Positions 2,152 to 25,930 of a stretch of DNA of 32,000 nt are shown here, in pieces. Positions within the stretch are counted from its first letter, which is position 1. Every line of letters starts with the position of its first letter. This DNA comes from Candidatus Saccharimonadota bacterium (lineage in GTDB: Bacteria; Patescibacteriota; Patescibacteriia; 2-12-FULL-60-25), in NCBI GenBank assembly GCA_023898425.1, contig CP060222.1, forward strand, positions 780,001 to 812,000. The letters run 5' to 3'. The notes beneath the pieces were generated by a model. The model was not told the DNA's origin and made no database searches. It saw only the letters and a program-made list of their open reading frames with translations. A program made the position numbers and the translations under genes.

Positions 2152-3446
2152 GCTCCATTTCGCACCAAATAAAACATGCTCTCGCCAATATTTGATTGCT
2201 TTTTTGCATCAAGCTGATCCCCTAGCATATCCAAATCATTAGGCAGGTCAGGTCTAGGGCGGCGCTGGGCATTTAAGTCAAAGCCATCGTTAAGAACTCT
2301 AACAAATAGAATATCTTCAGTTTTGTCAGCTACCTCATTATCAAAAAAACAAAATACTCGTCTTAACACCACTATAAGGGTAAAAGACACCGCTTGGTAA
2401 GCTAACGACAGCAAAAAAGGCCGTCTTCTACAAGATTTTTACGTAGCTGCTTGTATGCATTTCCAGATTGGAAAATAATACCCTCAGGAACAATAACACC
2501 CGCTCTGCCCTTTGGCTTAAGATGACTCATTATATAATCCACAAAAGCACTTCAGCGCGATTAGATTCAACGCCAAATTTCTTATGTGGTCGCACGCCGC
2601 CTTTCGGCGACATAAACGGAGGGTTAGCCAAGATCACATCAAACTTATCATTCCATCGTTCTTCGCTCGCAAGCGAATTATAGTTAAAAATCTTCGGCTG
2701 TTTAAAACCATGTAAGTAGGCATTTACTTGAGAAATACGCACCATGGTCGGATCAATATCATAGCCCTCGAAATTCTCACGAAGATTCTTGCGCTCTGTC
2801 GGTGTTAGTGGTTTTTCAGCATTCTTAGAGCCGTCTTCATTCTTACCATCGTGCTGATCTAGAATGTGTTTGTATGCGCTAATCAAAAAAGCCAGCCGTG
2901 CCACAAGCAGGATCTAAGATTTTATCATCTTTCGTTGGGTTAACGACTTTTACAATGAAATCGATAATATGACGCGGGGTTCTGAACTGTCCTGCATCGC
3001 CCTGTGAACCCATGATTGAGAGAAGGTATTCATACGCGTTACCCAGCTCCTCCGAGTGCGAGTAGTCAAAGTATTCAATCTCTTTCAAGAAAGATAAAGA
3101 ACTTCTGGCTCGCGATACGGCAAGAAGGCTGACTTGAAGATGTCGCGAAAAAAGCTCAGGAGTTTTTTCGATTCAGAAAACGCCTGAAGAGCTTCTGTGT
3201 ATAGATTCATCTTGCCCTGATTTTCAAGGCGAGAATCCATGAGCTTCGTCCATGAATATTTTTCAAGTGGCCCAACAAAAAATCTGGCTTTCCACCCGCA
3301 TTAATTGATGACTGATCGATATCATCCATGAATTTATAGATCAAAGCCGTCGTGATCTGCTCGATTTGTGACGATGGATTTGGCACAACGCCAACAAGCA
3401 CCTGACGTGCTGCATCAATATGTCGTTTGGTCTCAGCGTTCAACAT
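2152..3446 (-). pseudogene. hsdM: Type I restriction-modification N6-adenine DNA methyltransferase HsdM, multiply frameshifted
   Basis: Fragments 3207..3446 (HsdM N-terminal style helix bundle), 2879..3088 (FRTPRHI..DPACGTAGFF, SAM-binding motif I), 2530..2904 (ILANPPF, catalytic motif IV) and part of 2025..2414 (C-terminal DGFDLN..R..DLPND) lie in different frames. The M/S boundary near 2150 is approximate. Confidence 0.8.
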
Positions 3447-3453
3447 AGATTAT

Positions 3454-6401: not shown

Positions 6402-7322
6402 CTACATGTCTTTGGCAACTCCCATGCTCTCCTCGATTTGCTCGAGTTTTTCTTTCCAGTGAGACGCACGATCTGCGTCATCGGCGGCAATACGTAATCG
6501 TTGATAGAGCTCGCGTGCTTCTTTTGGCATTCTATTCGCGATAGCAACATCAAAGGCTAATTCAAGAAACTTTACGCTTTGCTTTTCTAAATCAATGGCG
6601 CGCTCTGCAGGACCCCAGGCATATTCTGGACGCTTACGCGCGAGATAAAATTGAGCTAACTCTGCATGACGAAAGGCTTGGTTTGGAGATGCCTCGGCCG
6701 CTTTTACGCGATAGACCTCGGCCTTTTCCATATCACCTTCGGCTTCGGCGATTTCTGCAAGACAGGCAAAGGTGGTGTCGTCGGTCTTTTTGTTTTAAGC
6801 AAGAATTCAAGCGTTTCTTTTGCTTGCGGATAGAGCTTTTTTTTTGAGATAGATTTGGCCAATGCCTTTATAGGCATCAATGCTTCTTGGATCGATTTGC
6901 AAGACGTCTAAATAGCGACGTTCTGCTTCTGCCCATTTGGTATCACGGGCAAGTGATTTTGCTTCGCTGATAAGCGTTGGTGACGCGATCTTTTTGGGAA
7001 GGTGCCATTGAAGCAAGTGGATTTTTTTTACCTTCTTGTAGGAGGCGTCTAAAGCGCGTAAGCGACGATAGAATGAACGATAGGAGTCACGTAATGACTT
7101 CCAAAGTCCACGAAAGGCGCGTGATAGTGAGGCTGCTTGTTCTGAGCTCACACGTTCGAAGCGACGATTCATGAGTTCTTGGCGTTCTTTCTTTTGACGC
7201 TCTTCTTTGATCGTCATTGGATCGAGCAATCGTAAATCACCCCAATGCATAAGCAGGAGCCAGCCGATCGTAAGAAGTGAGAGAATCAGAACCGCCAGAG
7301 CGATCCAAGCAAGTAAGGACAT
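6402..7322 (-). pseudogene. Membrane-anchored TPR-repeat protein, interrupted (or two adjacent ORFs 6807..7322 and 6402..6731)
   Basis: N-terminal TM helix (LLAWIALAVLILSLLTIGWLLL), then TPR-like helices. Both ORFs are in the same frame. A third frame between the T9 run (6837-6845) and the T5 run (6787-6791) reads LYPQAKETLEFLLKTK, which bridges them as a continuous TPR sequence. Confidence 0.55.
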
Positions 7323-7331
7323 GGGGGTAGT

Positions 7332-8096
7332 TTACGCTGGATTTGCCGCGCGGCAAAGCAAGCCAAAGGCACGAGGGTCTAGTGATGCGCCACCAACGAG
7401 TACGCCATCAATGTCTGTCGTTGAAACATATTCAGCAACGGAGCGTTGATCAACGGATCCACCGTAGATAATCGAGATCTCTTTTGCAATCTCTTTGCCT
7501 AGTTTCTTGCCTAAAACATCACGAATAGCCGCATGAACAACTTTTGCATCTTCTGCGGTGCAGCCTTTGCCTGAGCCGATTGCCCAGACAGGTTCATACG
7601 CAAAAACAGGAGCTGCTTCGCCATCGCCTTCGAGGCCTGCGCAAGCTGCTGTTACTTGAGCGCGAACAACTTTTAATGTTTCACCTTTTTTCTTTTGCGC
7701 TTCGGTTTCGCCGACACAAATAACAGGACGAATACCTGCCTTTTGGAGAGCGATCGCTTTTTTGTTAACCATTTCATCAGTCTCACCAAGATTCATGCGA
7801 CGCTCACTGTGACCAACAAGTGAGAAAGAGAGTCCAAACTCCTTTAACATTGCTGGTGAGATTTCGCCGGTATAAGCACCTTCGTTGGCCCAAAAAACAT
7901 CCTGTGCACCAAGCAAAGGGACTCCAGCACGGCCGAGCGAGGCTCGGGCAGCCGCCAATGAAACATGCGGTACCGCTACACCGATGTCGAGATCTTTTGG
8001 CAAACGTTCGCGACGAAAGGCACGGATCCAGGCACCAGCTTTTACTGGGCCATAATGCATTTTCCAATTGGCTATTACCAATTTACGCATAGTCAT
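7332..8096 (-). CDS. tpiA: Triosephosphate isomerase
   Basis: 254-aa ORF with VIANWKMH, VGHSERR, ICVGE, AYEPVWAIGSG and IIYGGSV motifs typical of TIM. The start could be 8096 or 8090. Confidence 0.9.
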   Translation of the reverse strand: MTMRKLVIANWKMHYGPVKAGAWIRAFRRERLPKDLDIGVAVPHVSLAAARASLGRAGVPLLGAQDVFWANEGAYTGEISPAMLKEFGLSFSLVGHSERRMNLGETDEMVNKKAIALQKAGIRPVICVGETEAQKKKGETLKVVRAQVTAACAGLEGDGEAAPVFAYEPVWAIGSGKGCTAEDAKVVHAAIRDVLGKKLGKEIAKEISIIYGGSVDQRSVAEYVSTTDIDGVLVGGASLDPRAFGLLCRAANPA

Positions 8097-8181
8097 GTCC
8101 CTTTCCTACCTTAAATTTTAGATTTGAGCAAGTCTCAATAACCTCTCATTCACCTATATTATTCATCCCCGCAATACCTCG

Positions 8182-8378
8182 CCTCTCTATCCTCTCCATC
8201 CTCTCCGCGAAGCGAAGAGGTACACATCCCTAACCGTCATCTCGACCGACTGAGCATAGCGAAGAAGTGGAGAGATCTCGTAGTAACGGGCAGATGCCTC
8301 CACTCCTCCTTGCGTCGTCGGTCGGCATGACGGGGGTGTCACCCTTCGTTCACACGGAGGGTAGGGAGGATAACGAAG
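8182..8378 (+). repeat. Composite interspersed intergenic repeat, copy A (one 31-bp subrepeat)
   Basis: Shares ordered modules with copies at 9716, 16026 and 21091. The modules are cctctc.atcctctcc, hairpin cctctccgcgaagcgaagagg, cgtcatctcgaccgactgagcatagcgaagaagtggagagatc, cagatgcctccactcctcct, tgcgtcgtcggtcggcatgacg and cttcgttcacacggagggtagggaggataacgaag. Confidence 0.85.
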
Positions 8379-8382
8379 CTAG

Positions 8383-9672
8383 TTATTGTATTTTTTTAAA
8401 TACGGCTTCTACGGCTGCTTTATCTTCGAATGGCCCGATGATCGCAAAGGCCATGCGATCACGTTGAAACGCAAGCTTTGCCACTCGTCTAATATCTGCC
8501 GCTGTGACTTTTTGAATGCGCTTAATACGTTCTTCGGGTGTTTCAAGTTTGTTTTGAAAAATCCATTGTCTTCCGTAATAGTCGGCTTGTGTTGAAGAAT
8601 CTTCGAAGGCAAGTAAAAACTTTCCACGAACATGATCTTTAGCGCGCTTTAACTCTTCTGCGGTAACGAGCTTATTCGTCATCTTTTTTAATTCTTGCCA
8701 AATAACTTTTACGGCTTCTTCGATGCGTGTTTTATCTAAGCCGGCCATTACCTGAAACATCCCAACGTCTTCCATGGCTTGGTGAGAAGCATAGACGGAG
8801 TAACACAAACCACGACGTTCACGAACTTCGATAAAAAGACGCGATGACATGGTGCCACCTAAAATCGTCGACAATAAGCTCATGGCTGCTAAATCTTTAT
8901 GGCCAAGAGGTAAACCATAAAAAGACATCCCGAGCTGTACCTGCTCTGTTTCTTTTTTCTGAAACGCTATCGGATGAGCGAGAGACTCTGGTGATACAAA
9001 CGGCACAAAGTCTTTTGCTTTATTGGTTTTTGGACTTTTTACCTTACCAAAGGTCTTTTGTAGCTGTGTCATCACCTGTGCGTCCACCTTGCCCGTCACT
9101 GTCACCACCATGCGCTCCGGCACATAGTACGCGTCACGATAGTCGATAAGCTGCTGGCGGGTCACCTTGCGAATATTCTCGCGTGGTCCGGCGATATTCC
9201 ATCCAAGCGTTGAATCCTGAAAGAGCGCTTCTTCCATAATGTCATCAATATGCATACGAGGATTATCTTCGTACATATTAATCTCTTCGATAATCACGCT
9301 ACGTTCGCGATTGATTTCTTTCGCATCATACTTTGAATGGAAAAGCATGTCGTGAAGTAAATCGATCGCGAGTTTTGTCTGCGTAGCATCCATCTTAACG
9401 TAATACGCCGTAAGATCTTTTGAAGTAAAGGCGTTATATTCTGCACCATATCGATCAAGCTCTTTTGAGACATCAAGCGTGGTAGGACGACGCTTTGTCC
9501 CTTTAAACATCAAGTGCTCAATAAAATGCGAGGCGCCATTAATCTCTGGTGACTCATAACGTGACCCAACCTTTGTAAACACCATTACGGTCGTAGAGGT
9601 AGCGCCTTTTTGCGGCACAAGAATAGCCTTCATCCCATTGTTTAGGGTTTTTAACTGCGGTTTTGTGGACAT
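8383..9672 (-). CDS. M16 family (pitrilysin-like) zinc peptidase
   Basis: Inverted zinc motif HFIEH..F.G near the N-terminus and a two-domain M16 length. The start is taken at MSTKPQLKTLNNG (9672) rather than the upstream ATG at 9708. Confidence 0.8.
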   Translation of the reverse strand: MSTKPQLKTLNNGMKAILVPQKGATSTTVMVFTKVGSRYESPEINGASHFIEHLMFKGTKRRPTTLDVSKELDRYGAEYNAFTSKDLTAYYVKMDATQTKLAIDLLHDMLFHSKYDAKEINRERSVIIEEINMYEDNPRMHIDDIMEEALFQDSTLGWNIAGPRENIRKVTRQQLIDYRDAYYVPERMVVTVTGKVDAQVMTQLQKTFGKVKSPKTNKAKDFVPFVSPESLAHPIAFQKKETEQVQLGMSFYGLPLGHKDLAAMSLLSTILGGTMSSRLFIEVRERRGLCYSVYASHQAMEDVGMFQVMAGLDKTRIEEAVKVIWQELKKMTNKLVTAEELKRAKDHVRGKFLLAFEDSSTQADYYGRQWIFQNKLETPEERIKRIQKVTAADIRRVAKLAFQRDRMAFAIIGPFEDKAAVEAVFKKIQ

Positions 9673-9715
9673 AGCGCATAGAGTACTGAGCCAACAGATA
9701 ACCATCAAGCCTTAG

Positions 9716-9972
9716 CCTCTCGATCCTCTCCTTACCTCTCCGCGTAGCGAAGAGGTACACAGCCCTAACCGTCATCTCGACCGACTGAGCATAGCGAAGA
9801 AGTGGAGAGATCTCGTAGCGACAGGCAGATGCCTCCACTCCTCCTTACGTCGTCGGTCGGCATGACGGGGCGGGATGCGTCGTCGGTCGGCATGACGGGC
9901 GGTGCTTTGTCATCGATTGACAGTGAGGCGTGTAACCCTTCGTTCACACGGAGGGTAGGGAGGATAACGAGG
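9716..9972 (+). repeat. Composite interspersed intergenic repeat, copy B (two 31-bp subrepeats plus a unique insert)
   Basis: Same module order as copy A. The subrepeat cgtcgtcggtcggcatgacggg occurs twice. An extra segment ctttgtcatcgattgacagtg carries a tgtca/tgaca inverted repeat. Confidence 0.85.
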
Positions 9973-10003
9973 CCGGGGTGATTGAGTTATATTGAGAATA
10001 GTG

Positions 10004-10037
10004 AAATCTAAAACTCCCCGAAGGGAGTTTTAGATTT
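10004..10037 (-). other. Perfect 15-bp hairpin spanning the glyQS stop codon
   Basis: aaatctaaaactccc (10004-10018), loop cgaa, gggagttttagattt (10023-10037). The last codons KSKTPFGEF* form the hairpin. No clear U-run follows on the minus strand, so terminator function is uncertain. Confidence 0.4.
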
Positions 10038-11408
10038 TGGATTTGATCCAGCCAACCAATTCTTCTTTTTGATGGTGATTTGTTCCATGGTGTCGCGATC
10101 TCTGATGGTGATGGTGCCCTGTTCTTTGGTGGCGCCGTCGATTGCGATACACCATGGTGTACCGATTTCGTCTTGACGACGATAGCGCTTACCGATGGAT
10201 CCTGAATCATCATATTCGGTAACGATACCTGCTTTGCGCAATTCACCGGTGATCTCTTTACCAATTTCTGGTAAACCGTCTTTCTTTACAACAGGTAACA
10301 CTGCGACTTTTACTGGAGCGAGTGCTGCAGGCAAGCGCAATACCATACGTGGTTCTTTTTCGCCTTCGTTTGCTGTATCTGCTTCATCGATATCGAGATG
10401 TTCGCAAAGCACAGCAAGAACAGTGCGGCTTAATCCCCACGTTGGTTCAATGACGTATGGGATATAGCGCTCACCGGACTCTTGATCAAACCAACGAAGA
10501 TCTTCGTTTGAGTACTTCATGTGTCTACCAAGGTCATGGTCGGTGCGATTTGCTAAACCGTAGAGCTCTTTTTGACCAAATGGGTATTGGTATTCTGTAT
10601 CAATGGTACGAGCTGAGTAAAAAGCACGGTCAGCTTCGCTAATTTCTTTGTAGACCACATTTTCTGGCTTGAGCTTGAGTACGTCGTGGATCCATGTCTT
10701 CATCTCGCTCAACCAATGTTCGAAGTGCTCCGGAGCTTCTTCTGGTTTTACAAAGTACTCAATCTCCATTTGCTCAAATTCACGCGTACGAAAAATAAAG
10801 TTGCCAGGTGTGATTTCGTTACGAAAAGCACGACCAACTTGAGCGATACCAAATGGTAATTTTTTGCGCATGGTGTCACGAATATCCTTCCAGGTTGTAA
10901 ACATCCCCGCGGCTGTCTCTGGACGTAAGTAAGCGGTATTTACCGTGTCTTCCGTCACACCGATAAATGTTTTGAACATCAAATTGAAATTACGCACTTC
11001 ACCAAGCTCCCCACCACATGAAGGACAGACGGTATCATGAATCGTAATACTGGATGCTTTTTCTTCGCCAACCTCTGCTTGCTTTGCTTCGATCAAATGA
11101 TCAGCACGATGACGTTTTTTACATTTTTTACAATCAACAAGTGGGTCACTAAATGTTTCAAGATGACCAGATGCCTCCCATACTTTTGGATTTTGGATAA
11201 TAGGCGTATCAACACCAACAATATCTTCGCGACCATGCACAAACATCTTCCACCATGCATCACGAATATTGTTTTTTAGCTCAGTACCGTATGGACCATA
11301 ATCAAAAGAGTTGGCAAAACCTCCATAGATATCCGAATCCGGATACACAAAGCCGCGTCGTTTGCATAACGACACAAGGAGCTCCATTTTTTTCTCGTTG
11401 GATATCAT
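10008..11408 (-). CDS. glyQS: Glycine--tRNA ligase, alpha2 (GlyQS) type
   Basis: 466-aa ORF. The N-terminus reads LVSLCKRRGFVYPDSDIYGG..FDYGPYG, class II motifs are present, and the C-terminus has an anticodon-binding domain (VAVLP..). Confidence 0.9.
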   Translation of the reverse strand: MISNEKKMELLVSLCKRRGFVYPDSDIYGGFANSFDYGPYGTELKNNIRDAWWKMFVHGREDIVGVDTPIIQNPKVWEASGHLETFSDPLVDCKKCKKRHRADHLIEAKQAEVGEEKASSITIHDTVCPSCGGELGEVRNFNLMFKTFIGVTEDTVNTAYLRPETAAGMFTTWKDIRDTMRKKLPFGIAQVGRAFRNEITPGNFIFRTREFEQMEIEYFVKPEEAPEHFEHWLSEMKTWIHDVLKLKPENVVYKEISEADRAFYSARTIDTEYQYPFGQKELYGLANRTDHDLGRHMKYSNEDLRWFDQESGERYIPYVIEPTWGLSRTVLAVLCEHLDIDEADTANEGEKEPRMVLRLPAALAPVKVAVLPVVKKDGLPEIGKEITGELRKAGIVTEYDDSGSIGKRYRRQDEIGTPWCIAIDGATKEQGTITIRDRDTMEQITIKKKNWLAGSNPKSKTPFGEF

Positions 11409-11418
11409 AGTAGAGAGG

Positions 11419-11973
11419 TTAGACGGTCATGATTTCTTTTTCTTTGTCTTCGGTCATGATCTCGATTTTAGCATTCCATTCGCCTGTTGCTTTATCAAGA
11501 CGTTCAAGCTCACGACGTTCTTCGTCTTCACCAATCGCTTTGTCTTTTTTGTCTTGCTGGATTGCTGAGCGAACTTTTTCGCGTACGTTACGAATAGCGA
11601 TCTTTGCTCCTTCTTCGCGTTGACGTAAAAGCTTTACCATCGATTTACGATTGTCTTCGGTCATTGGTGGCATTACCAAACGAATAATCGTTCCTGCCGT
11701 ATTTGGCATCATCCCAATATTTGCCTCAACAATAGCCTTCTCAACATCTTTTACGATGGTCTTGTCCCAAGGCTCAATTTGAAGTGTCTTGGCATCCGGT
11801 ACAGTAACCGAAGCGCAGGATTTTAAATCCATCGACTGACCGTAGGCAACAACATGAATGCCCTCAACCAAACCTGGATGAGCGCGCCCTGTACGAAAAC
11901 CTTGTAATTCTTGGTGAAAGTGATCAATCACCGCCTGAAATTCTGCTTTATTTGCATCAATATGATTAGCCAT
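11419..11973 (-). CDS. frr: Ribosome recycling factor
   Basis: 184 aa from MANHIDANKAEF. Matches include FRTGRAHPGLVEGI, PWDK and AIRNVRE. The upstream ATG at 12018 adds an implausible extension. Confidence 0.9.
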   Translation of the reverse strand: MANHIDANKAEFQAVIDHFHQELQGFRTGRAHPGLVEGIHVVAYGQSMDLKSCASVTVPDAKTLQIEPWDKTIVKDVEKAIVEANIGMMPNTAGTIIRLVMPPMTEDNRKSMVKLLRQREEGAKIAIRNVREKVRSAIQQDKKDKAIGEDEERRELERLDKATGEWNAKIEIMTEDKEKEIMTV

Positions 11974-12033
11974 AGTTAGGCGAAGATTGCCACGAGCTAA
12001 AAGAAAAAGCAACCTCACGGTTGCTTTTTGCGT

Positions 12034-13101
12034 TTATTTTTTTGTTCCTGGCAATGTTCCCATATACAACGTCGTCTGTGTCGGTGTTACGGTATATTGA
12101 AAGAATGATGCCCCGCGACTCGAAGGAAGTTTCTTTGGCGTCCATGTTTGACCACCATCCGCGCTCCAAATGATAGCCTTGTCAGTTGCATAGACGAGGC
12201 GGTTTGCGTCTTTTGGATGAACGGCGAAAGCACGCATTTCAACAGAGTTTGGTGGCGTTGGTAGATTGAGAGCCGTCCACGTTGCGCCTGCATCATCAGA
12301 TCGAACAATACCAAATTTTGAAACAAGGTAGAGGCGATTTTTTGTTAGCGGATCAAGAGCGATAAAGTTTCCACGACGAGCGCCATCAAAAGCGTCGAGC
12401 TCTTTGCGGATTTGCGTCCATGTTTGACCACCATCAACAGATTTTACTAATCCCTGACGATCTACCAAACCGTACACAACACGAGAATCGGTAGGGTCCA
12501 TGATGAGCTGAAGAATCTTTGCTCCTTCTACACGATGAACAACCTTCCAGGCAACTCCACCATTATCTGATCTCACAATATCCCCATCAGAAGTACCAGC
12601 GTAGAGAATATTTGGATTATACCAATCGATCATCATCGAAAGAAACTGTTTGTCGGTGCGTGGATCAAAATAGGCTTGTGTCCAATCACGCGCACAGTTA
12701 TCCGTCTTCATGATCTGATTGTTACGAGCGGCAAAAATCGTACACTTTTCTTTTGGATGTACGCTGATAGCATTTACATGTCCTGCATTTAAACCTCCAG
12801 CGCTTTGCCATGACTCGCCCGCATCAAGTGAGTAGATGACGCCATTCTCAACGGTGCCTGCATACATCGCTTTGGCATCTTGCGGATCGCTTGCGAGGGT
12901 CACGATCCCCATATTGGCAATACTCGCTTGTTTTACACCAAGGTTTAGCACTTTTAGCTGACTCCAGATTTCGCCTTGATCACGCGTGATAAAAATACCG
13001 CCATCAGGACCTGTTGGTTGCGCGGTTGATGTACCGCAGCCAGCACCGGTAAGGACAAGCGCCATCAAAACAGGCGCGATCATTCGAGAAGTAAGGTTCA
13101 T
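12034..13101 (-). CDS. BNR/Asp-box repeat beta-propeller lipoprotein (Ycf48/sialidase-like fold)
   Basis: Signal peptide with lipobox LTGAGC. There are six S/T-x-D-x-G-x-x-W boxes (TRDQGEIW, SLDAGESW, SDNGGVAW, SVDGGQTW, SDDAGATW, SADGGQTW). Confidence 0.7.
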   Translation of the reverse strand: MNLTSRMIAPVLMALVLTGAGCGTSTAQPTGPDGGIFITRDQGEIWSQLKVLNLGVKQASIANMGIVTLASDPQDAKAMYAGTVENGVIYSLDAGESWQSAGGLNAGHVNAISVHPKEKCTIFAARNNQIMKTDNCARDWTQAYFDPRTDKQFLSMMIDWYNPNILYAGTSDGDIVRSDNGGVAWKVVHRVEGAKILQLIMDPTDSRVVYGLVDRQGLVKSVDGGQTWTQIRKELDAFDGARRGNFIALDPLTKNRLYLVSKFGIVRSDDAGATWTALNLPTPPNSVEMRAFAVHPKDANRLVYATDKAIIWSADGGQTWTPKKLPSSRGASFFQYTVTPTQTTLYMGTLPGTKK

Positions 13102-14033
13102 ACAAAAAGAGTTTTAATAAAAGTAGGGATTCGATGTTGTGGGTCACGATACGGTTTTAGCGCTCCCCATTCGAGAGCAAGGTGCGGAGAAATCGCCGTA
13201 CCCAATAATCTCCATGCCCATACTATAGCATGAGCGACCTCTTTTGAACGCATTCCGTCTTGTTTCATAATTGTCGTAGAAGCAGATTGCAACAAAAGTA
13301 ATTCATCCTCCCAAGCTTGCTCTGAGTTTTCGGCATACTGACAGCGCTTCGCGAGCCGCTCTAATTCACTCACTACACGACCTGGATTACCATCAACCAA
13401 AACCCTGACAAGTCGAAAAGCTTCTTCGCGATTACGTGTCACGGTATCGAGTTGATAAACAAGTCTTAGCGCCATACCCATCGCACCATGTGCATATGTT
13501 GCTGCAATACCTGCTTCGTCAGGTTTGATGCCTCTGCCGATAAGTTCTTGCTGAATCGTCACTGTATCAAGGGGCAAAAAACGAATCGGCACGAGACGTG
13601 AACGAATCGTTCCAAAAACACGCTCTTCGCGATCGGACGTACAAAGAAAAACTACACCTGCCGGTGGCTCTTCGATAAGCTTTAACAAACTATTTGCAGA
13701 CTCTTCGTTTAAACGATCAATCGCCTCAATAATAACTACCTGGTGACCACCCTTTGCGGATGTAAGTGATAATCGAGAAATAAGATCACGTGCTTGTTTT
13801 ACTTTAATTTCTTTGGCGCCTTCTTCGCGCTTTAATACCATAAAATCTGGATGATGTTCGAGCGCATCAACATCATCAATTCTTAATAACTCTGCCGCAA
13901 CATGCTCTGCAATAAAACGCTTACCTGTACCTCGTGCACCCAAAAATAAATAGCCATTTACCGGCTGTATGGCGATACGCTTTAATACACGTAATAACTC
14001 TGGACGAACAACGACATCTTGCCATGGCTTCAT
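13098..14033 (-). CDS. holB: DNA polymerase III delta-prime subunit (clamp-loader AAA+)
   Basis: Matches include GYLFLGARGTGKRFIA, VVIIEAIDRLNEESANSLLKLIEEPP and SRLVPIRF. The start is set at MKPWQD (14033). A TTGACG (14064-14069) - 17 nt - CACACT (14041-14046) promoter 7 nt upstream suggests a leaderless mRNA. An alternative ATG lies at 14069. Confidence 0.8.
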   Translation of the reverse strand: MKPWQDVVVRPELLRVLKRIAIQPVNGYLFLGARGTGKRFIAEHVAAELLRIDDVDALEHHPDFMVLKREEGAKEIKVKQARDLISRLSLTSAKGGHQVVIIEAIDRLNEESANSLLKLIEEPPAGVVFLCTSDREERVFGTIRSRLVPIRFLPLDTVTIQQELIGRGIKPDEAGIAATYAHGAMGMALRLVYQLDTVTRNREEAFRLVRVLVDGNPGRVVSELERLAKRCQYAENSEQAWEDELLLLQSASTTIMKQDGMRSKEVAHAIVWAWRLLGTAISPHLALEWGALKPYRDPQHRIPTFIKTLFV

Positions 14034-14072
14034 ATAGAGGAGTGTGCCGTTCGTGCGAGATAGCGTCAAACG

Positions 14073-14099
14073 AAAAAAGCCCCATCAAAAGACAGGGCT
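14073..14099 (-). terminator. Weak rho-independent terminator after the 14144..15772 gene
   Basis: On the minus strand: agccc, 12-nt loop, gggct, followed by TTTTTT. The stem is short. Confidence 0.4.
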
Positions 14100-14143
14100 C
14101 TCATTCAGTAGTGTGACTCACGAGTTAAGTGAATCTAAAAGAG

Positions 14144-15772
14144 CTAACGACCGAGGTTCATCCCGCCGATCGTGATGATCAAGCCCGGATCAAAACGGGT
14201 TTGGGCACCATCGTTCAAGCGACGATCGGCATGATCAGCGACGCCAATCACACCTGACACCATCACAAATGGCGACCATCCTCGTTCACGCCAGGTATAA
14301 CCCACGTCGAGACGCAAGCCTCGTTGCCGCAGTTGGTACCAAGTACCATTTTGTTCCGCCAATTCTCCGTTACCGGAGTAGCGATGGCCAAAATGTGCAT
14401 TCGCTCCGAGGAGCAAATGACCTGCGGCGACGCCGAGCAGACCGACGCGATAATGCACCTGCCCTTGAACGGGGACATGCACACCGTCACGAAGACCAGC
14501 GCCTGCATCAACACCTCCAAGAAGGTAAAGATGAGGGACAAGCCGAATCGTGAGCGCGAGTCCGAGGCCAAAAAACTTCGGCGATCTTGATCCAGCGTGC
14601 GCTACCAATTGGTAGTACGAGGTAGCGAAGGATGTCTCGACGATCAAGCCGACACGTCCTTCGTTTGTTCGACGACCGCCACGTGAGCGACGAAGCTCCG
14701 GCACCTGAATGCCCTGACGATCATCTCCGTTTGTTGACAAAGGTGACTGTCGTGAAGGTTCGTCACCTTCAGCATCAGTGCTGGATCCTGCGGCCGAATC
14801 CGAATGAGTAGTTACTTCAGAGGTCGTACAGGACAATCGTTCTGTCGTGCCCCCGATTTCGTACTCAATAAATTCTTGGCCGGGTCGGCATAGCTGAGTA
14901 CGCTGCGCTCGGTAGATGCCACGCACCATGACACGTACGTGTTCCAAGATGACGTGATCCATTTCGAGCGAATCTGCTCGCACTTGTCCAATCTCTCGAC
15001 GAAGATCTTCGATCTGCATACGAAGAGCTTGAAGATCTCCGACCTGTTCTCGAAGCGCTTCGATTTGTTGCGCTTGTGTCAGGTCAGCGGTGCGCATCTC
15101 GAGCATCGCCTGCCGAATCACTTCGGCAAGAATGACACCTTCGGGCGTCAAACAAACGCCGGGGTTGCGATCCTCATCCGGTGTACCGCCAGACCCACTA
15201 TTGGGCTCGACGAGGTTTTGGATGAGTGCAACGAAACGAGCGCGAGAAGGATTTGCTGTACGACCTTCGCCGTACCACACACCACCAAGTCGCTCACAAA
15301 GCGTCTGCGCAATCTGCGCACGACCATCGCGCGCTGCAGGACCTTCGCCCAAAATCGGTAGCGACGGAATGACATAGGTCAACGCCGTATTATCCACCGC
15401 TGGTGAGCTAGGTTCTTGCGTTACGACAACCGTCGTTGTTCGTCTCGTGGTCGTTCTTGTCGGACGACGCCGAGGCTGCTGCGTTTCTGCCTGTGGTGTT
15501 GCCACATGTGCAGGCACATTACTGCAGCTATTCGCCCCAATGATGTACATGGTAGCAGCCGTGATACGCGCAGGGTTACCTACACAATCAGGCTGACTCG
15601 CAACGCACTGAATGGCTGCCGTTGGATCTGCACATGCTTGCCCCAGTTGATTGAGACATGTCATCGCACAGTTATATGCAGCCACCTGATCTGCTTCGGT
15701 TTGAGCATGAGTCGTCCCCGTATGGGCCGCCCACGCCAGCACCACGCTGACCACGATGATTGTTTTTCTCAT
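14144..15772 (-). CDS. Secreted protein of unknown function, high GC; signal peptide, Cys-containing N-domain, coiled coil, beta-rich C-terminal domain
   Basis: AGGAG lies 7 nt before the ATG at 15772. The signal peptide is MRKTIIVVSVVLAWAAHTGTTHAQ. There is a Thr/Arg-rich linker and a heptad-like QAQQIEALREQVGDLQALRMQIEDLRREIG. The C-terminal roughly 170 aa show alternating hydrophobic periodicity. It is intact and markedly GC-richer than the neighbouring holB. Confidence 0.7.
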   Translation of the reverse strand: MRKTIIVVSVVLAWAAHTGTTHAQTEADQVAAYNCAMTCLNQLGQACADPTAAIQCVASQPDCVGNPARITAATMYIIGANSCSNVPAHVATPQAETQQPRRRPTRTTTRRTTTVVVTQEPSSPAVDNTALTYVIPSLPILGEGPAARDGRAQIAQTLCERLGGVWYGEGRTANPSRARFVALIQNLVEPNSGSGGTPDEDRNPGVCLTPEGVILAEVIRQAMLEMRTADLTQAQQIEALREQVGDLQALRMQIEDLRREIGQVRADSLEMDHVILEHVRVMVRGIYRAQRTQLCRPGQEFIEYEIGGTTERLSCTTSEVTTHSDSAAGSSTDAEGDEPSRQSPLSTNGDDRQGIQVPELRRSRGGRRTNEGRVGLIVETSFATSYYQLVAHAGSRSPKFFGLGLALTIRLVPHLYLLGGVDAGAGLRDGVHVPVQGQVHYRVGLLGVAAGHLLLGANAHFGHRYSGNGELAEQNGTWYQLRQRGLRLDVGYTWRERGWSPFVMVSGVIGVADHADRRLNDGAQTRFDPGLIITIGGMNLGR

Positions 15773-15970
15773 CGTAATTCTCCTTGTGAAGGTGCGGCCC
15801 ATCCGCAACCAATTCGCCCGGCACGCTTGTCATCGGAGGAGATAGACAAACAAACCGAGCAAATAGGGTGCGGATGTTCTCCAAACAAGCTCTTCTCATT
15901 TACGATAAGGAGTTGTGTGGACGTTGGTCTTTACCATTAAAATATGGTTTTTGTCAACCCCCGTAGCGAC

Positions 15971-15992
15971 ATCCCTCGACTGCGCTCGGGAT
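15971..15992. repeat. Short GC-rich hairpin (family 2: stem + tcgact.cgctc loop)
   Basis: atccc tcgactgcgctc gggat. It is nearly identical in loop and layout to cacccc tcgactttgctc ggggtg at 25929-25952. Confidence 0.6.
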
Positions 15993-16025
15993 GACGTCAG
16001 ACCGCCCACGGAATGACAGTAATAG

Positions 16026-16260
16026 CCTCTCGATCCTCTCCTGGCCTCTCCGCGGAGCGAAGAGGTACACTGCGGAACCCTTACCGTCATCTCGACCGAC
16101 TGAGCACAGCGAAGAAGTGGAGAGATCATCGCAGCACGGCAGATGCCTCCACCCTCCTTACGTCGTCGGTCGGCATGACGGGGTGGTGCTGCGTCGTCGG
16201 TCGGCATGACGAGGCGGTGTCACCCTTCGTTCACACGGAGGGCAAGGGAGGATAACGAAG
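16026..16260 (+). repeat. Composite interspersed intergenic repeat, copy C (two 31-bp subrepeats)
   Basis: Same ordered modules as copies A, B and D. It lies inside the high-GC island, between the 15772 gene start and the lipoprotein pseudogene. Confidence 0.85.
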
Positions 16261-16869
16261 CCAGGATGACAGCCCGTTAGCGAAAGGCGGAGAAAGCCTT
16301 AAAATCCTCTCTACAATCATTCTCCTTTGTTGCCTTTTCTGGGCAATATCAATAATGCGATGCTCTAAACTAGCGCCATTTACACGAATATCTTGAACAA
16401 TAAGACCTCTGGCAAACTGACATTCGTTGGTAGGTTCACCACGTTTTGGGTAATTGGTCACGACAGCGTATTGCTCATCACCGGCATAAAAACGCACAAG
16501 AAACTGCTTATCTTCTGGGATGTCTTTGGTGATACAGGTAAAGCCAAATAATGTTGACGGCTTGTCTATAGGTGTTTGAATATCACACTTGGCAAGCACT
16601 CGTGACAAATCCTGACACCATCTCTACAGACGTTACAGCGCTCCAAGAGCGATCAATCGTACCTGTGACCACTAAAGTACCCGTACAGTCTGGTTGTTTA
16701 TAGGTACAAGGTTTAATCTCGTCTAATACAACCAAATTTGCTGCTGGTACTGGTTCTGTTGATGTTACCGTTATTGGTTCATCTTTATCTAAAAAGCAGG
16801 TAACTCACCGCAACCAGATAATGTCGTAACAGCGATAATCGCGCAGAGCGAGGTAATGAGGTGTTTCAT
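16231..16869 (-). pseudogene. Lipoprotein of unknown function, low GC, two frameshifts
   Basis: The ATG at 16869 gives MKHLITSLCAIIAVTTLSGC (lipobox LSGC), then a stop after 27 codons. Adding one T at the T5 run continues as AFLDKDEPITVTSTEPVPAANLVVLDEIKPC... A second shift joins ORF 16231..16608. The 3' end runs into repeat copy C. Confidence 0.6.
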
Positions 16870-16914
16870 AATCTTTCTCTTGGTCTATCGAACCCGCAAT
16901 CACCTGTCAAAGCC

Positions 16915-16948
16915 TAAAACGCAAAACCCACCACGAGAAGTGATGGGT
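16915..16948 (-). terminator. Rho-independent terminator immediately after the stop at 16949
   Basis: On the minus strand: acccatcac, loop, gtggtgggt (9 bp with one G-U pair), followed by tttgcgtttt. Confidence 0.6.
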
Positions 16949-17547
16949 TCAGCAGTTGGTGCTCGCACCGAGGTGCGAGCAAGGAACGGATCTCAAGTCG
17001 TCGAGAACGACCGTGGCGTCGTAGACGCCGGCAGTGGTTGCCTCGACGTTGACGCCGGGGCGGTCGAACACCCGTAGTGGTGAGCCTTCTGCACCTGGGA
17101 TGAACACCTGGCGTATCCTGTCGTCAACACCGGGTGGTGACCGCCGGACTGCCGTTCGCCGAAGCGGACGTGGATGTGTCGGAAGGAGCCGACACCAGAT
17201 CGCAGACGAATCGTCTGGTCGTGCCGGCATCGCTCGATGCCGTGCCGACGCATCGGAGGCAGGACATCGCGTGACCATCCGATCGACGAATGCGACCGGA
17301 GCGAGCGTCCTCGCCACGGTGACGTGCGGTGGGCACTGACATCCATCCGACCCTGGGTCAATGCGCTGCCCCGGGCAGCGGATGGCCGGACAGGTGATCA
17401 CGCCGCTGTCGGGGTGATCACGCCGCTGTCGAGGGTTGCCATCCCGCTGTCGGGGCTTGATGAGGTCCGCGTCGCACCCGATGGGGTGCGGCGCCGGCAG
17501 ATGCGATGATGAGGGCCGCAGGATCGAGATCTGCTTACGTTGGTCAT
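16949..17547 (-). pseudogene. High-GC ORF of unknown function with unstable reading frame
   Basis: A strong SD (AAGGAGG) lies 5 nt before the ATG at 17547. The frame closes at 17398, inside a 20/21/21-nt tandem repeat. The best-looking coding frame then changes at least twice more. The last segment (VFDRPGVNVEATTAGVYDATVVLDDL) has very high third-position GC. Confidence 0.4.
17393..17454. repeat. Tandem repeat, three units of 20, 21 and 21 nt
   Basis: The units are ggtgatcacgccgctgtcgg, ggtgatcacgccgctgtcgag and ggttgccatcccgctgtcggg. The 20-nt unit breaks the frame that would otherwise read DSG(M/V)(A/I)T.. three times. Confidence 0.8.
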
Positions 17548-17706
17548 TTTGCCCTCCTTAGGGCAACGTCGAATCGTGCATTTCGACGCGAAACTTTGAA
17601 AGAACAGACTCATAAGACCACCTGGCATATTTTGTCTTCACACGCATTGACAGTGAATGATGTTTCACGCCCAATGCCTAAGAAGACGCTAATTCAACTA
17701 GAGGAT

Positions 17707-17735
17707 ATTGTACACTATTTATTTGACATTGTCAA
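17707..17735 (-). promoter_or_regulatory. Strong sigma70-type promoter for the 17547 gene
   Basis: On the minus strand: TTGACA (17730-17735), 17-nt spacer, TACAAT (17707-17712). The -35 box is half of the perfect palindrome TTGACA-T-TGTCAA (17723-17735). Confidence 0.65.
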
Positions 17736-17831
17736 GGTTTCTTCACCTTCCAACTATCGGTTCACCACGTATGTGATGGACTCATAGATGGAGGTGAAAT
17801 GTAGAATACACTCAAGCCTCACCCAGATTCA

Positions 17832-19031
17832 TCAGATACTACTGGACATACAGGCAGAGACGGTTTGCACGCCACGCGGCCGCCAGGCGCGATCACGTAT
17901 CGTGTCACCCGTCAACGCGATGCCGTTGAAGGTGTAGTGAAACCCGTTGTCGGACAAGTCCGATCCAACAGGCGGTAGCGTGATGAGACGTCCGTACTCC
18001 CACCACCGAGACAGGTTGTTGCGCATGCCGACCGGGTCGGTCCATCGCAGACGACCTGCGCTCGAACGAACCCGCCCCAGACGATGAGCTTTCACCACCG
18101 AAGGTGGGTTGATCGTTTCGACCAGTACGTTGCGTGAAGCCGGACAAGGCGGGGTTACCCACGTTGTCGAATTGCAATGGCTCGGTTCGGCAACGACGAC
18201 GCAGCTTTTGCTGCGCTGAGCTCGAACACTGAGGGTGCCACCCTCGGGAGGAGGCGAGACCGGTACGCATCCGCATCGTTGGTCGACGAGCCCGGTCGCG
18301 AGTCATCGTCCTCACCGTTGTGGCAAAGGGCGTCCGTTTCGTGGGGGCGCCTGAGGAACCGGCGTGCAGTCGTTGGAGCTGTGACTGTGGTCGTCGCAGT
18401 CACGGTGTTTGAGCACGTAGCCCTCAGGCTGCGTCACTGACACCTGAGTGTGACAGGTCGCCACTGACAGCCGAAGCCATCGTCGTCGTAGTCTCGTACC
18501 AGGTCGTTCCCGACGAGCAGTCGAACTTCTCGTCGGGATCGTTATCGTCACAGTCTCCCGTGACCAGAACCCAGCCGGGTCACAGACGCCGGTGGTGAAC
18601 ACCTGACTCTGTGTCCCACCAACACTGTCACCGTCGACATCACGGAAGCATGTGACCGGAGTCACACACGCCGCGAGGGCGACGCAGATGACCGACTGGT
18701 TGTTGCAGAAGAGCTGGCCTCTACCCGAGGGGCAACCCTGCGGGGTGCAGGCGTCGCCGATCTCGTCGAAGCGAGGGTCATTCTGACACGGGGCCGGCGG
18801 ACTGCTTTCGCAGACCTCACCGGGCTTCACTGCGCAGATGCCGGTGGTGCCGGAGGCGTCGCACACGAGGTGCGTCGATCCGTCATCGCACGAGGCATCG
18901 CAGTCGTTCGCATCCAGGACTTCTCCCGGCGTACAGTAGCGAACGACACCGTCGGGCGCGTCGTCGACCGGGCCTGTGCAGTTGAAGCCGAAGAGCGGCA
19001 GAGCTGCGACTAGAATCAGAAACTTCTTCAT
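17832..19031 (-). pseudogene. Secreted Cys-rich protein with MopE-like DxDGD / DCDDxD metal-binding-type repeats, multiply frameshifted
   Basis: AAGGAG precedes the ATG at 19031. The signal peptide is MKKFLILVAALPLFGF and the N-terminal domain has many Cys. The motif elements DVDGDSVGG, PGWV..GDCDDNDP, RDYDDDGFG, PEGYV..DCDD and ETDALCHNGEDDD occur consecutively but in different frames between about 18300 and 18640. A further open frame continues to the stop at 17832. Confidence 0.5.
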
Positions 19032-19213
19032 GATGTCTCCTTCCCCACTAACCCGTGAGGGGTGGGTGGGGATTGGGTTGATTGTTAAAGAACGAGAGGC
19101 GCTGCATACTTGCAACGTTTACCCCTCAATCTCATGACGACAGAGTCATCACGAGGTATTGGAGGCCCAGCAGGAAAGTTTTTCAACTCTCAACTGCTGG
19201 GCAGAAGACCAAA

Positions 19214-20619
19214 CTAATGTGCGAGGATCGCACCCGAGCCGAGGCGAAGGCCGAAGCCAATCATCCCAGCCACACCTGTGCGGTTCACGTAGTTGTGACC
19301 GCCGGACGTCGTGAAGATGTCCCAGGTGATGCGCTGCACGTCGACCCCGATACGGAAGTAGGGAACGGCCCTAAATCCTTCTCGAGGACGAGTGAGGTCG
19401 ACCGTGAAGGCCAACTCGGTCCGAAGACCGTTGCCTCGAGCGCCGTCGCCCGAACCGTTCGGGGCGCTGTTGCCCGTTGTGTAACGGACGAAGCCGCCGA
19501 GAAGATCGAGACGAAGGCGCGGCGCCAGAGTGATCTGAAGTCCAAGCGAGACAGAGCCTCGCGTGAACCGATCGACCGGGACGTAGTCCTGGATGGCCAG
19601 GCTTTCGTCACCGATGTTGCCACCACCGAACGAGCCACGAAGAACGAAGCCGACCCGATTGGAGGCGAACGGTCGCAGATTGATCTGCCCACCGATCTCG
19701 CCACAAACCAGCGAAGACTCGAGACCGCTTTGGCCCGCGCAGAGGTTGACGTCGACTTGGAAGTCGACGTTCTGCGACAGGAACTCGCCAACCGAACTTC
19801 CACCCGCACTCGGGGGGCACAGCTCGACACGACGAGCCGGAGTCGCAGCCTCCCATTCTTGGAAGGTGACGACGTCCATCTTGTCAGCGCACTCGAACCG
19901 ATAGTTCGTCTCGAGGTTGTCGTCGATCTGCCGCTGTTGCGCCGGGTCCACGTCCGGACAAAGCGCGTTGCGACCTTCTGGAGTGGCGTTGAACCACTCT
20001 TCGAAGATGACGTTGGGGTAGTTCGCGCTGCACATGTGCAGCCAGAGCGTACGCTCGTCTCTTTCTAGCCTCGCGACAAGCTCCTCGAACATCACCACGG
20101 TGACGTACTCACTCATGTCGATGTTGATCGTGTCACCTTGCCTTACCGACCCGTTAGGGACGGCGCAGAAGGTACCAGCCACGAACCGATGACCGGCCGC
20201 GTCGCGCAGGTGCCGAAGCCCCGATGGCGCAATGACAAGCGGAACGGTGTTAGGCGGACAAACCGCTTCACCACCGATACCGTACTCGGCAACACCGTAG
20301 TCGGTTTCGACCTCGCCGTGCTGACGGGAACCTTGACGTCCGCCAGAGAGGTGGCGTTGACGACGATTCGCCATGCCGTGGGAGGCGGCGGATCGTCGTC
20401 GATCACCACGGTTGTGGTGGTCTCACCAGGGCTGCAGTAGCCCTCCTCCTCGCACCAGGTGCGAGGATTGGCCGGAATCGGCATCACCGACGCATTGGGC
20501 GCCGATGCCGTGGGCGGTGGCTCGAACTCGTCAGCCTGCACGAACGCAGGCATCGAGAACGAACCAGTGATGACCATCATGACGATGACCATCTTGAAAA
20601 ACTTGATTTGAAAGGACAT
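19214..20619 (-). pseudogene. Secreted protein paralogous (C-terminal domain) to 14144..15772, one frameshift
   Basis: GGAGG precedes the ATG at 20619. The signal peptide MSFQIKFFKMVIVMMVITGSFSMPAFVQA is in one frame (ORF 20143..20619). The remaining 386-aa body (19214..20374) is in another frame, with the shift somewhere around 20300-20380. The C-terminus aligns with the 14144 protein (LGLQITLAPRLRLDLLGG versus LGLALTIRLVPHLYLLGG). Confidence 0.6.
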
Positions 20620-20760
20620 TTCTACTCCTCCCCACTACCGCGAGGGCCTGTGGGTGATGGGACGTTTTGGTAAACCGAGGATCAGATGTCATCGATTCTC
20701 CAGCCGTCCCGCAGCCTCGCAAAGGAGGATGCGGTGCAACGGAACGGCTACAGAATCTAT

Positions 20761-20805
20761 GAAAGGGCTATCAAGTTAACGAAAAGGGCTATCAAGTTAA
20801 CGAAA
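20761..20805. repeat. Tandem direct repeat (20 + 21 nt + partial) containing GTTAAC palindromes
   Basis: gaaagggctatcaagttaac, then gaaaagggctatcaagttaac, then gaaa. It starts about where transcription from the 20807-20834 promoter should initiate. Confidence 0.8.
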
Positions 20806-20806
20806 T

Positions 20807-20834
20807 AGTATACGCCAAAAACCCATTTTGTCAA
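20807..20834 (-). promoter_or_regulatory. Strong sigma70-type promoter for the 20619 gene
   Basis: On the minus strand: TTGACA (20829-20834), 16-nt spacer, TATACT (20807-20812). This implies a leader of roughly 180 nt. Confidence 0.65.
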
Positions 20835-20841
20835 GGGGCTT

Positions 20842-20903
20842 GTGACATAATGATTATGTATCTCAAAATAGACTATTTGAGACCAATCATTATTTCTTGT
20901 CAC
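20842..20903. repeat. 62-bp imperfect palindrome upstream of the island promoter
   Basis: gtgaca-taatgatt-atgta-tctcaaa-atagacta-tttgaga-cc-aatcatta-tttct-tgtcac. Three nested arm pairs (6, 8 and 7 bp) are all perfectly complementary. Confidence 0.7.
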
Positions 20904-20988
20904 GCCCTCCATCTCGTGAATATTGTGTGAAGTTACAACCGAACACTTCTCTTCTTTCTTAACTACACTATAGCAAATATCAGGTTAT

Positions 20989-21016
20989 TTGTCAAGTTTC
21001 TGTTTTGCATTATACT
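20989..21016 (+). promoter_or_regulatory. Candidate plus-strand promoter with no ORF downstream
   Basis: TTGTCA (20989-20994), 16-nt spacer, TATACT (21011-21016). The next elements are the terminator hairpin at 21044-21070 and repeat copy D. Confidence 0.4.
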
Positions 21017-21043
21017 GATTCTTCTCTAGAATTAGTAAATAGC

Positions 21044-21070
21044 AAAAACCTCCACTAAATGGAGGTTTTT
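21044..21070. terminator. Bidirectional rho-independent terminator
   Basis: A5, stem acctcca (21048-21054), loop ctaaa, stem tggaggt (21060-21066), T4-5. On the minus strand it would end the 23227..21430 operon after repeat copy D. Confidence 0.7.
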
Positions 21071-21090
21071 GACTTCTGACGGTGTCTTCG

Positions 21091-21409
21091 CCTCTCGATC
21101 CTCTCCAGCCTCTCCGCGAAGCGAAGAGGTACGTTACTCGTCATCTCGACCCATGTCTCGAGCAACGCCGAAAGAGACTGAGCATAGTGGAGAGGTACGC
21201 TACTCGTCATCTCGACCGACTGAGCATAGCGAAGAAGTGGAGAGATCTCGTAGTGATGGACAGATGCCTCCACTCCTCCTTGCGTCGTCGGTCGGCATGA
21301 CGAGGCGGTGCTGCGTCGTCGGTCGGCATGACGGGGTGGTGCTGCGTCGTCGGTCGGCATGACGGGGTGTCACCTTCGTTCACACGGAGGGCAAGAGAGG
21401 ATAACGAAG
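21091..21409 (+). repeat. Composite interspersed intergenic repeat, copy D (three 31-bp subrepeats, duplicated 5' module)
   Basis: Same module order as the other copies. The gaggtac..ctcgtcatctcgacc module occurs twice. The 31-bp unit tgcgtcgtcggtcggcatgacg.gg.ggtgc occurs 2 full times plus one partial (21281-21373). Confidence 0.85.
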
Positions 21410-21429
21410 CCGGGGTGATATCTTTTAAA

Positions 21430-25523: not shown

Positions 25524-25930
25524 GGGGATGAATCAGCATCGACGTTTAGTCCATTCACATCTTTGCAAGCCGAGCCTGTAAAACCGCTCGTAAATATCGT
25601 TTTACACATGACAATTGCCAACGTCATTTCCAAGGTTCGCGAAACGGTTGCTCACGCATTCCGTGCTCCAGCCTTTGTTCCGACCTTCGCTTAACGCGAA
25701 TACCTTCGGACCGGTCCTTGCTTAAGCGCCTTCTTAAGCAAACGGCTGTTATACTTCGAGGCTAGCTCCAAGTGCCCATGCTCGGCACAAGGAGGACAGG
25801 CTTGAGCATCCATCTAGATGATCTTGTTCTTTTATCCCATCTAGACTAGCTCTTAGAAAGAACTAAGCTTGTGAGCGAAAAGGGTGATTAGGTTAGACGG
25901 ACGGGGGTGCGATACCCCCCATCTCCACCA
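25524..25930 (+). ncRNA. ssrA: tmRNA (SsrA)
   Basis: The 5' GGGGAUG pairs with the 3' CAUCUCC-A-CCA and includes the G3-U alanine identity pair. The T-arm is GGGGG UGCGAUA CCCCC. An internal tag frame ends in ..PAFVPTFA followed by TAA at 25692-25694, with a possible resume codon GCC at 25617. Confidence 0.85.

Follow-up and report, generated by a model that had tools for sequence, protein, structure and literature searches.

The 32,000-nt stretch of patescibacterial DNA analyzed here, hereafter the window, carries four copies (A to D) of a composite intergenic repeat. These copies probably represent a lineage-specific, small, non-coding interspersed foldback repeat that belongs, broadly, with the MITEs (miniature inverted-repeat transposable elements) and the pneumococcal BOX, residing in Uhrbacteria-like hosts. 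The family is undescribed; the class of bacterial repeat is well known. Copies have been gained and lost at intergenic sites on a short time scale, and at least some of the presence and absence alleles have moved among strains by homologous recombination. The sequence examined comprised the window and about 9 kb past its right end, that is, about 41 kb of a 1.03-Mb genome. The records nearest to the peptidase M16 encoded in the window belong to metagenome-assembled genomes of Patescibacteria and of Candidatus Uhrbacteria.

The four copies, collinear and co-oriented, were recovered by a direct-repeat search, pairwise alignment, and a profile search, in agreement with the copy number, module order, and shared orientation claimed in an earlier note made from the letters alone. 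A profile built from the four copies matched the window only at 8173-8391, 9707-9987, 16018-16272, and 21083-21424, with E-values from 1e-69 to 1e-96, and chance is ruled far out as the source of this similarity. The locations given in that note hold, but its limits were too narrow: the left ends lay 1 nt inside the element, and the right ends of B, C, and D fell about 10 nt short, missing GCCRGGRTGA(T). With the boundaries set from a reading of the sequence and from the empty allele of site D, all four copies are assigned to the minus strand. Copy A (8181..8379, 199 bp) has a single 31-bp unit, outer arms at about 8181-8225 and 8336-8379, and an inner foldback at about 8235-8332. Copy B (9715..9982, 268 bp) has two units and a degenerate third, and its left inverted-repeat extension, ATCAAGCCTTA, starts at 9704. 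Copy C (16025..16269, 245 bp) has two units, and copy D (21090..21419, 330 bp) has three, together with a 66-bp duplication of the left-arm module. These counts agree with the one to three units first reported. The tandem units of copy D lie at 21272-21304, 21303-21335, and 21334-21366 on the minus strand, with the core GCGTCGTCGGTCGGCATGACGGG and a spacing of 30-31; those of the other copies are found at 8302-8334 (A), 9837-9899 (B), and 16150-16213 (C).

What the earlier note did not contain is that each copy forms a single imperfect palindrome over its whole length. In the outer foldback, the pyrimidine-rich head is paired with the purine-rich tail, and the arms carry two small hairpins. 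The terminal inverted repeats pair GCCTCTCGATCCTCTCC with GGAGGATAACGAGGC, and within the palindrome CGAAGAGGTACAC is paired with GTGTCACCCTTCG. A second foldback is nested at the outer apex, where the left-arm module CGTCATCTCGACCGAC is paired with the GTCGGTCGGCATGACG core of the 31-bp unit; each unit repeats the left-arm module as its reverse complement, and the pairing is visible in the predicted folds. At the apex, GTGGAGAGATC pairs with GATGCCTCCAC. The hairpin originally described as 9 bp long is present, but it consists of five plus three pairs flanking a 1x1 mismatch and closes with a GNA triloop, while the 7-bp inverted repeat CTTCGTT/AACGAAG was found as described. Folded as single strands, the copies are predicted to form one long hairpin (-112.5 kcal/mol and z = -8.4 for A; z = -5.8 for D), and the profile run on the reverse strand also matches every copy, with E-values from 1e-5 to 1e-10. 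A 16-bp motif, CGTCAT-NN-CGACCGAC, occurs in each copy once or twice in the forward direction and one to three times inverted. Element segments have a GC content of about 57-66%, compared with 41-49% in the surrounding housekeeping region. Beside copy C, at 15960-16000, there is an imperfect hairpin, CGACATCCC-N12-GGGATGACG, which looks like the CGTCAT/ATGACG arms of the inner foldback and is possibly a leftover; the adjacent junction differs by 15 nt between strains.

Short forms of the element, 105-125 bp long and made up only of the outer arms and a short apex, are found in two related species, represented by loci L099 and L110, whose contigs were obtained through close homologs of the M16 protein. 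L099 (GCA_963852945.1, M16 87% identical) has three full copies (11343-11460, 7926-8036, and 3944-4061) and a half copy (20272-20326), all four within 21 kb, and two of its copies occupy positions matching sites A and C. L110 (M16 83% identical) has two copies, at 3-115 and 530-642. In the light of these short forms, the long form of the window is the short foldback extended at its apex by a nested second one, and the repeat family is older than the window's species. The inner module on its own was found nowhere, and the full element was not detected by BLASTN and nhmmer in 88 loci of relatives, searched before the L099 and L110 contigs were added. A covariance model of the short form additionally matched a similarly designed 110-nt foldback that sits exactly between the M16 and isomerase genes of a distant member of the Uhrbacteria (L055:10094-10202). 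This foldback is GC-rich (-87.7 kcal/mol, z = -7.6), with a pyrimidine arm, two arm hairpins, and a purine arm, and its homology to the family is uncertain. In L110:1-730, the two short-form copies bracket a gene for a DUF559 (Vsr-like endonuclease) protein, whose open reading frame (ORF) extends into the second copy. This protein was considered as a mobilizing enzyme and rejected, given that the gene is present neither in the window nor in L099 and was seen at one further locus only (L036).

The strongest support for mobility comes from same-species strains, taken from independent JGI, ENA, Logan, and NCBI assemblies, in which orthologous sites were compared as initially suggested: A, B, and D are each missing from some strains. 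Copy A is present in L092 and L093 and absent from L096, L097, and L098, where the M16-isomerase gap measures 70 nt. Copy B is missing from L096-L098 and from the A-bearing strains L092 and L093. Copy C is present in L091 and partly in L089; in L091 its left arm is of the D type and its left junction differs. Copies thus exchange segments among themselves. Copy D is present in L089, L094, L101, and L104, with three units in L101 and L104 and two in L102. It is absent from L100, where the flanks are 99.8-99.9% identical over 1.6 kb and 10.6 kb. Between these flanks lies a partly diverged patch of about 1 kb (window 20334-21418 against L100:1556-2278, of which 498 bp align at 90.5%), which in L100 spans the promoter/terminator region, the D site, and a different terminator. 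A diverged patch inside near-identical flanks is the pattern expected of an allele swap by homologous recombination. At site B, the gap measures 6-75 nt in most relatives, and the gap at site A is 60 nt in L009. Several short-read contigs stop exactly at an element.

The layout of the family is closest to that of BOX from Streptococcus pneumoniae, a composite intergenic repeat (boxA-boxB(n)-boxC) in which the terminal modules pair with each other, the internal module forms a variable tandem array, and the length differs among strains (PMC3049150). BOX elements are frequent inside and after operons and are predicted to form a stem-loop once transcribed (PMC3049150). Here, too, outer arms enclose one to three 31-bp units, with two or three units in different strains. 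The likeness is, however, an analogy of layout only: in the window the tandem units themselves build an arm of a nested hairpin instead of standing apart as an insert, and four copies are documented here against more than 100 for BOX. Similarity in sequence would not be expected, and the collections searched revealed none. Since the host belongs to an uncultured Patescibacteria lineage, membership in BOX is not claimed. With the bacterial MITEs, such as the Correia/NEMIS elements of Neisseria, RUP, and Nezha, the family shares its small size, lack of coding capacity, multiple copies, terminal inverted repeats, highly base-paired foldback, intergenic location, and presence/absence polymorphism. 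It differs from them in the absence of a target-site duplication (Correia elements duplicate TA), in its GC-rich composition, in the compensatory evolution of its arms, and in having no partner insertion sequence in the scanned ORFs. The likeness to repetitive extragenic palindromic (REP) sequences and bacterial interspersed mosaic elements (BIMEs), raised at the outset, is loose, and BOX is closer in architecture. Like the enterobacterial repetitive intergenic consensus (ERIC, also IRU), REP and BIME sequences are palindromic extragenic repeats co-transcribed with operons that can alter the stability or processing of the mRNA, and REPs lack target duplications. However, REP units measure 20-40 bp and are tied to RAYT transposases, whereas the units here are much longer nested foldbacks of 100-330 bp and no Y1 transposase was found by Pfam in the window ORFs. 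ERIC, in turn, is a single palindrome of 127 bp restricted to enterobacteria. Neither REP nor ERIC has any sequence relation to the window family.

Several observations weigh against a mobile repeat of the MITE or BOX kind. All four documented copies lie within 13 kb, with none in the roughly 9 kb beyond the window, and an exact 22-mer scan of JGI metagenomes returned contigs of the window's region only, so that dispersal over the whole genome would be hypothetical. No target-site duplication was seen at site D, where the empty L100 and the filled window can be compared and the ends are clean; there is a possible TA pair at site A, and at B and C additional sequence differences obscure the junctions. 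Neither transposase, integrase, nor a matching insertion sequence was detected by Pfam in the 30 ORFs of the window, and no transposase or integrase appears in the gene tables of same-strain loci covering about 9 kb past its right end. The element is GC-rich relative to its surroundings, while MITEs are typically AT-rich. Compensatory change is not predicted by end recognition by a transposase alone. The fact that sites A and C are also filled in L099 could reflect ancient residence followed by repeated loss. Even so, among the roles first proposed for the element, that of a non-autonomous mobile element is best supported, as A, B, and D are absent from some strains, whereas a role in mRNA stabilization, processing, or attenuation could not be established.

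The basic element of the family measures about 105-125 bp, and in it a pyrimidine-rich arm pairs with a purine-rich arm around two arm hairpins and a variable apex. In the window's species, this apex holds a second foldback, formed by CGTCATCTCGACCGAC and one to three tandem 31-bp units, the number of which changes among copies and strains, as commonly happens in tandem arrays and probably by slippage. The first insertion at a new site would require either an enzyme acting in trans or a template-switch event. Judging from their position, copies within operons or ahead of a terminator should be co-transcribed with their neighbors and give a near-continuous RNA duplex of 80-120 bp, which would probably block 3' exonucleases or attract RNase III. 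Any effect on the neighboring genes would thus be a by-product of insertion and not the reason for the family, which is probably selfish.

The flanking genes are all on the minus strand and encode triosephosphate isomerase, peptidase M16, a class II glycyl-type tRNA synthetase, the ribosome recycling factor (RRF), a BNR-repeat protein, the DNA polymerase III delta' subunit, conserved ORFs without known function, and a Wzz-like protein. Copy A fills the gap from the M16 stop (8383) to the isomerase start (8096). Copy B lies between the M16 start (9672) and a terminator-like hairpin (about 10003-10025) at the synthetase stop. Copy C has a conserved ORF without known function on either side. On one side is a 125-aa ORF (16231-16608) whose final codons extend into the element; on the other, about 65 nt downstream, a TTGACA promoter-like site recognized by eye precedes a 554-aa ORF. 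Copy D occupies the 3' untranslated stretch that follows the Wzz-like stop (21430), directly ahead of an intrinsic-terminator-like hairpin outside the repeat (21043..21071, minus strand) with a 13-pair stem followed by a T-run. The gene map and this hairpin, read from 21071 to 21043, agree with the initial placement of the copies between or after minus-strand genes and of D in a 3' untranslated region.

This setting raises the alternative that the elements are selected cis-acting RNA structures, that is, intercistronic or 3'-end hairpins kept because they stabilize, process, or attenuate operon transcripts. This explanation appears unlikely, in spite of several observations in its favor: every copy stands in a transcribed gap, with D ahead of its terminator, and unrelated long hairpins are found in the synthetase-M16 and M16-isomerase gaps of other Uhrbacteria (L009, L055, L064, L066, and L110). 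It is also supported by compensatory changes that keep the stems. In an alignment of the spliced outer foldbacks of the window and L099 copies, with a consensus of the terminal stem and two arm hairpins, 98.7% of the cells are paired, compared with 47-56% in slid controls. Five of the 31 pairs have changed on both sides (16 cells), and neither this cell count nor the covariation score was reached in any of 500 shuffles; with the L110 copies added, for a total of ten sequences, 6 of 29 pairs are compensatory. In the inner foldback there is one clear case, in which ACCGTCAT paired with ATGACGGG in copy A is replaced by CTCGTCAT paired with ATGACGAG in copy D. The covariation check called for in the earlier note has thus found pairing kept through compensatory change. 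As the events are few and mostly separate two clades, they support rather than prove a conserved structure, and they would fit a folded RNA or a folded single-stranded DNA alike.

Neither the folding energies nor the consensus energies revealed a consistent preference for the transcribed strand. G-U pairs outnumber A-C mismatches by 29 to 10 cells, but the structure was itself predicted on that strand, and the strand energies are mixed. As the element is nearly palindromic, its orientation was judged from two asymmetric loops in the arms: one arm carries CCGTGTGAACGAAG, its partner CTTCGC-NNN-GCGGAG. Of the eight copies that could be judged, seven (A to D and the three full L099 copies) are oriented alike relative to the flanking genes, in line with an RNA role, whereas L110 has one copy inverted relative to its genes and a second that is symmetric. 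The orientation bias is real but not absolute, so that the shared orientation noticed at first describes the four window copies without amounting to a strict rule. The idea that the pyrimidine arm precedes the purine arm in the direction of transcription throughout the clade was rejected, as a scan of 82 loci revealed many hairpins of opposite polarity. Moreover, copies within a genome have probably been homogenized by exchange, so that orientation counts are not independent, and since a single gene direction is common to all loci, effects of transcription and replication are inseparable. An RNA role is further weakened by the loss of A, B, and D in same-species strains, down to 99.8% identity, by the synthetase-M16 gap, which in most relatives offers just 6-75 nt, and by the distance from the element to the downstream start codon, which varies from 44 to more than 200 nt.

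The alternative of a folded single-stranded DNA is mobilization by an HUH/Y1 transposase that would recognize the hairpins on one strand, as for palindromic elements derived from IS200/IS605 or REP sequences moved by RAYT transposases. The lack of a target-site duplication at D, the co-orientation of most copies on one strand, and the conservation of the hairpins, with compensatory change, rather than of the linear end sequence would be in keeping with it. So would one of the arm hairpins, whose GNA triloop is of the GCGAAGC type, which forms an unusually stable DNA mini-hairpin. On the other hand, Pfam revealed no Y1 transposase in the window ORFs, and the precomputed gene tables of the loci obtained by protein look-up contain none. 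The four left flanks have no common target tetranucleotide (CCTC, CTTA, AATA, and CTTC), and compared with REP units the element has a greater length and a more complete palindrome. This mechanism is therefore quite unlikely, and both it and the RNA role are rated lower than a repeat of the MITE or BOX kind. A very improbable last possibility is that the copies are binding-site arrays for a DNA-binding protein, with the 16-bp motif CGTCAT-NN-CGACCGAC marking the 13-kb region for a chromosomal function. The motif is indeed repeated in both orientations, and the known copies are clustered in 13 kb and missing from the next 9 kb or so, but the short forms of the related species lack the motif altogether, strains can do without copies, there is no known candidate for the binding protein, and the cumulative GC skew has no origin-like turning point in the window.

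Other known classes of element were searched for as well. The repeat is not a tRNA, as first stated, and belongs to no Rfam family: the only window matches above the Rfam gathering thresholds are a transfer-messenger RNA (tmRNA) and two tRNAs, and at a permissive E-value the weak matches on copy D stay below threshold and are centered on the adjoining terminator. It is also non-coding, as had been argued, given that the 31-bp unit and other indels shift the frame among copies and that the longest ORF of the element has no protein matches; the 101-aa ORF crossing copy D, used as a protein query for copies miscalled as genes, gave no match. The 31-bp units are nearly identical and abut at a spacing of 30-31 bp without spacers, and so are not CRISPR-like, as already stated at the outset; no CRISPR or TIGR effector-like domain was found by Pfam in the flanking genes. 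attC sites were rejected on length (199-330 bp against 57-141 bp), on direct reading of the ends, which are unlike RYYYAAC...GTTRRRY, and on the housekeeping flanks in conserved order. Retrons, diversity-generating retroelements, and type III toxin-antitoxin repeats were set aside on anatomy and for the absence of partner genes. One genome per GTDB species was scanned for the exact 22-mer core of the element without a match, and the element was not found in phage and plasmid collections. The matches at L090 (a metagenome 22-mer at the end of a coding sequence) and in a 19-mer scan of viral contigs (two, both inside a phage capsid gene) are due to chance. Literature searches for such repeats in this bacterial group returned nothing relevant.

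Besides the window family, many Uhrbacteria carry lineage-specific long hairpins in the same types of gap, as revealed by a hairpin scan of the 82 loci in 140-nt windows with energies corrected for GC content. The synthetase-M16 gap is occupied by unrelated foldbacks in the window, L009, L064, L066, and L110. In L009, the closest GTDB representative, it contains a single-copy 170-nt foldback (9823-9993, z = -7.3), which was considered as a diverged member of the family and rejected for want of sequence similarity. In L064:2298-20048, a hairpin is present in nearly every intercistronic gap (for example at 6559-6661, 7747-7839, 8477-8540, 9880-10003, 12059-12131, 14804-14864, and 15652-15729), and some arm types recur at three sites. 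Further long, near-perfect intergenic hairpins are found at L066:9854-9967, L066:5479-5609, and L086:15326-15446. In several of the L064 hairpins, and in those of L066 and L086, the arms consist of tandem sub-repeats of 7-10 nt that are mirrored on the other arm, such as (GAGTCGT)n and (GGGCGTC/GTTGCGTC)n. L110 has a second, different foldback family (2722-2914 and 4858-5068), which is bounded by CTCACCCTG...CAGGGTGAG, contains two CCCTCTCC-loop-GGAGAGGG hairpins, and fills the BNR-RRF and synthetase-M16 gaps. It is conceivable, with a low probability, that the Uhrbacteria-like group fills its intercistronic and 3' gaps with fast-turnover long hairpins, some in multi-copy families such as that of the window and others with mirrored sub-repeat arms. 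These might be made or moved by an undescribed hairpin-templated mechanism without target duplication, and they might also serve the reduced genomes as general signals for RNA processing or 3' ends. If so, the mirrored unit expansion on both arms of the window family would be one visible product of this process.

Some features of the window accompany the repeats without forming part of them. The region 14000-21000 has a GC content of 54-63%, compared with 40-50% in the rest of the window, and its ORFs have N-termini that look like those of signal peptides or lipoproteins, without a match in Pfam. An island reading of this block between C and D, with direct repeats as its borders, was rejected: the block and its gene order are kept in L009 and L099, where the GC content is high too, so that it is not a recent island. 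In or beside it are three 20-bp tandem units (17393-17453) and two exact 21-bp units (20762-20803); the latter sit upstream of a 158-aa ORF, and L100 apparently has a single unit. The tmRNA is of the one-piece type (25524-25930, 113.9 bits in Rfam), with an unusually long predicted tag, ANVISKVRETVAHAFRAPAFVPTFA. A type I restriction-modification system at 1013-6010 has its specificity, methylase, and restriction parts split into several short ORFs, which suggests that it is decayed or phase-shifted; L096 and L099 have other restriction-modification genes at the matching position.

Genomes of the candidate phyla radiation, of about 1 Mb, are generally regarded as streamlined, with little mobile DNA. 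In such a genome, an active repeat family gained and lost between strains that are 99.8% identical provides a natural marker of very recent genome change and of recombination in uncultured populations. The elements also explain why short-read assemblies break at these sites. Finally, if the hairpins affect transcript ends, strain-level differences in expression might be found in the core operons of glycyl-tRNA synthetase, the M16 peptidase, and triosephosphate isomerase.

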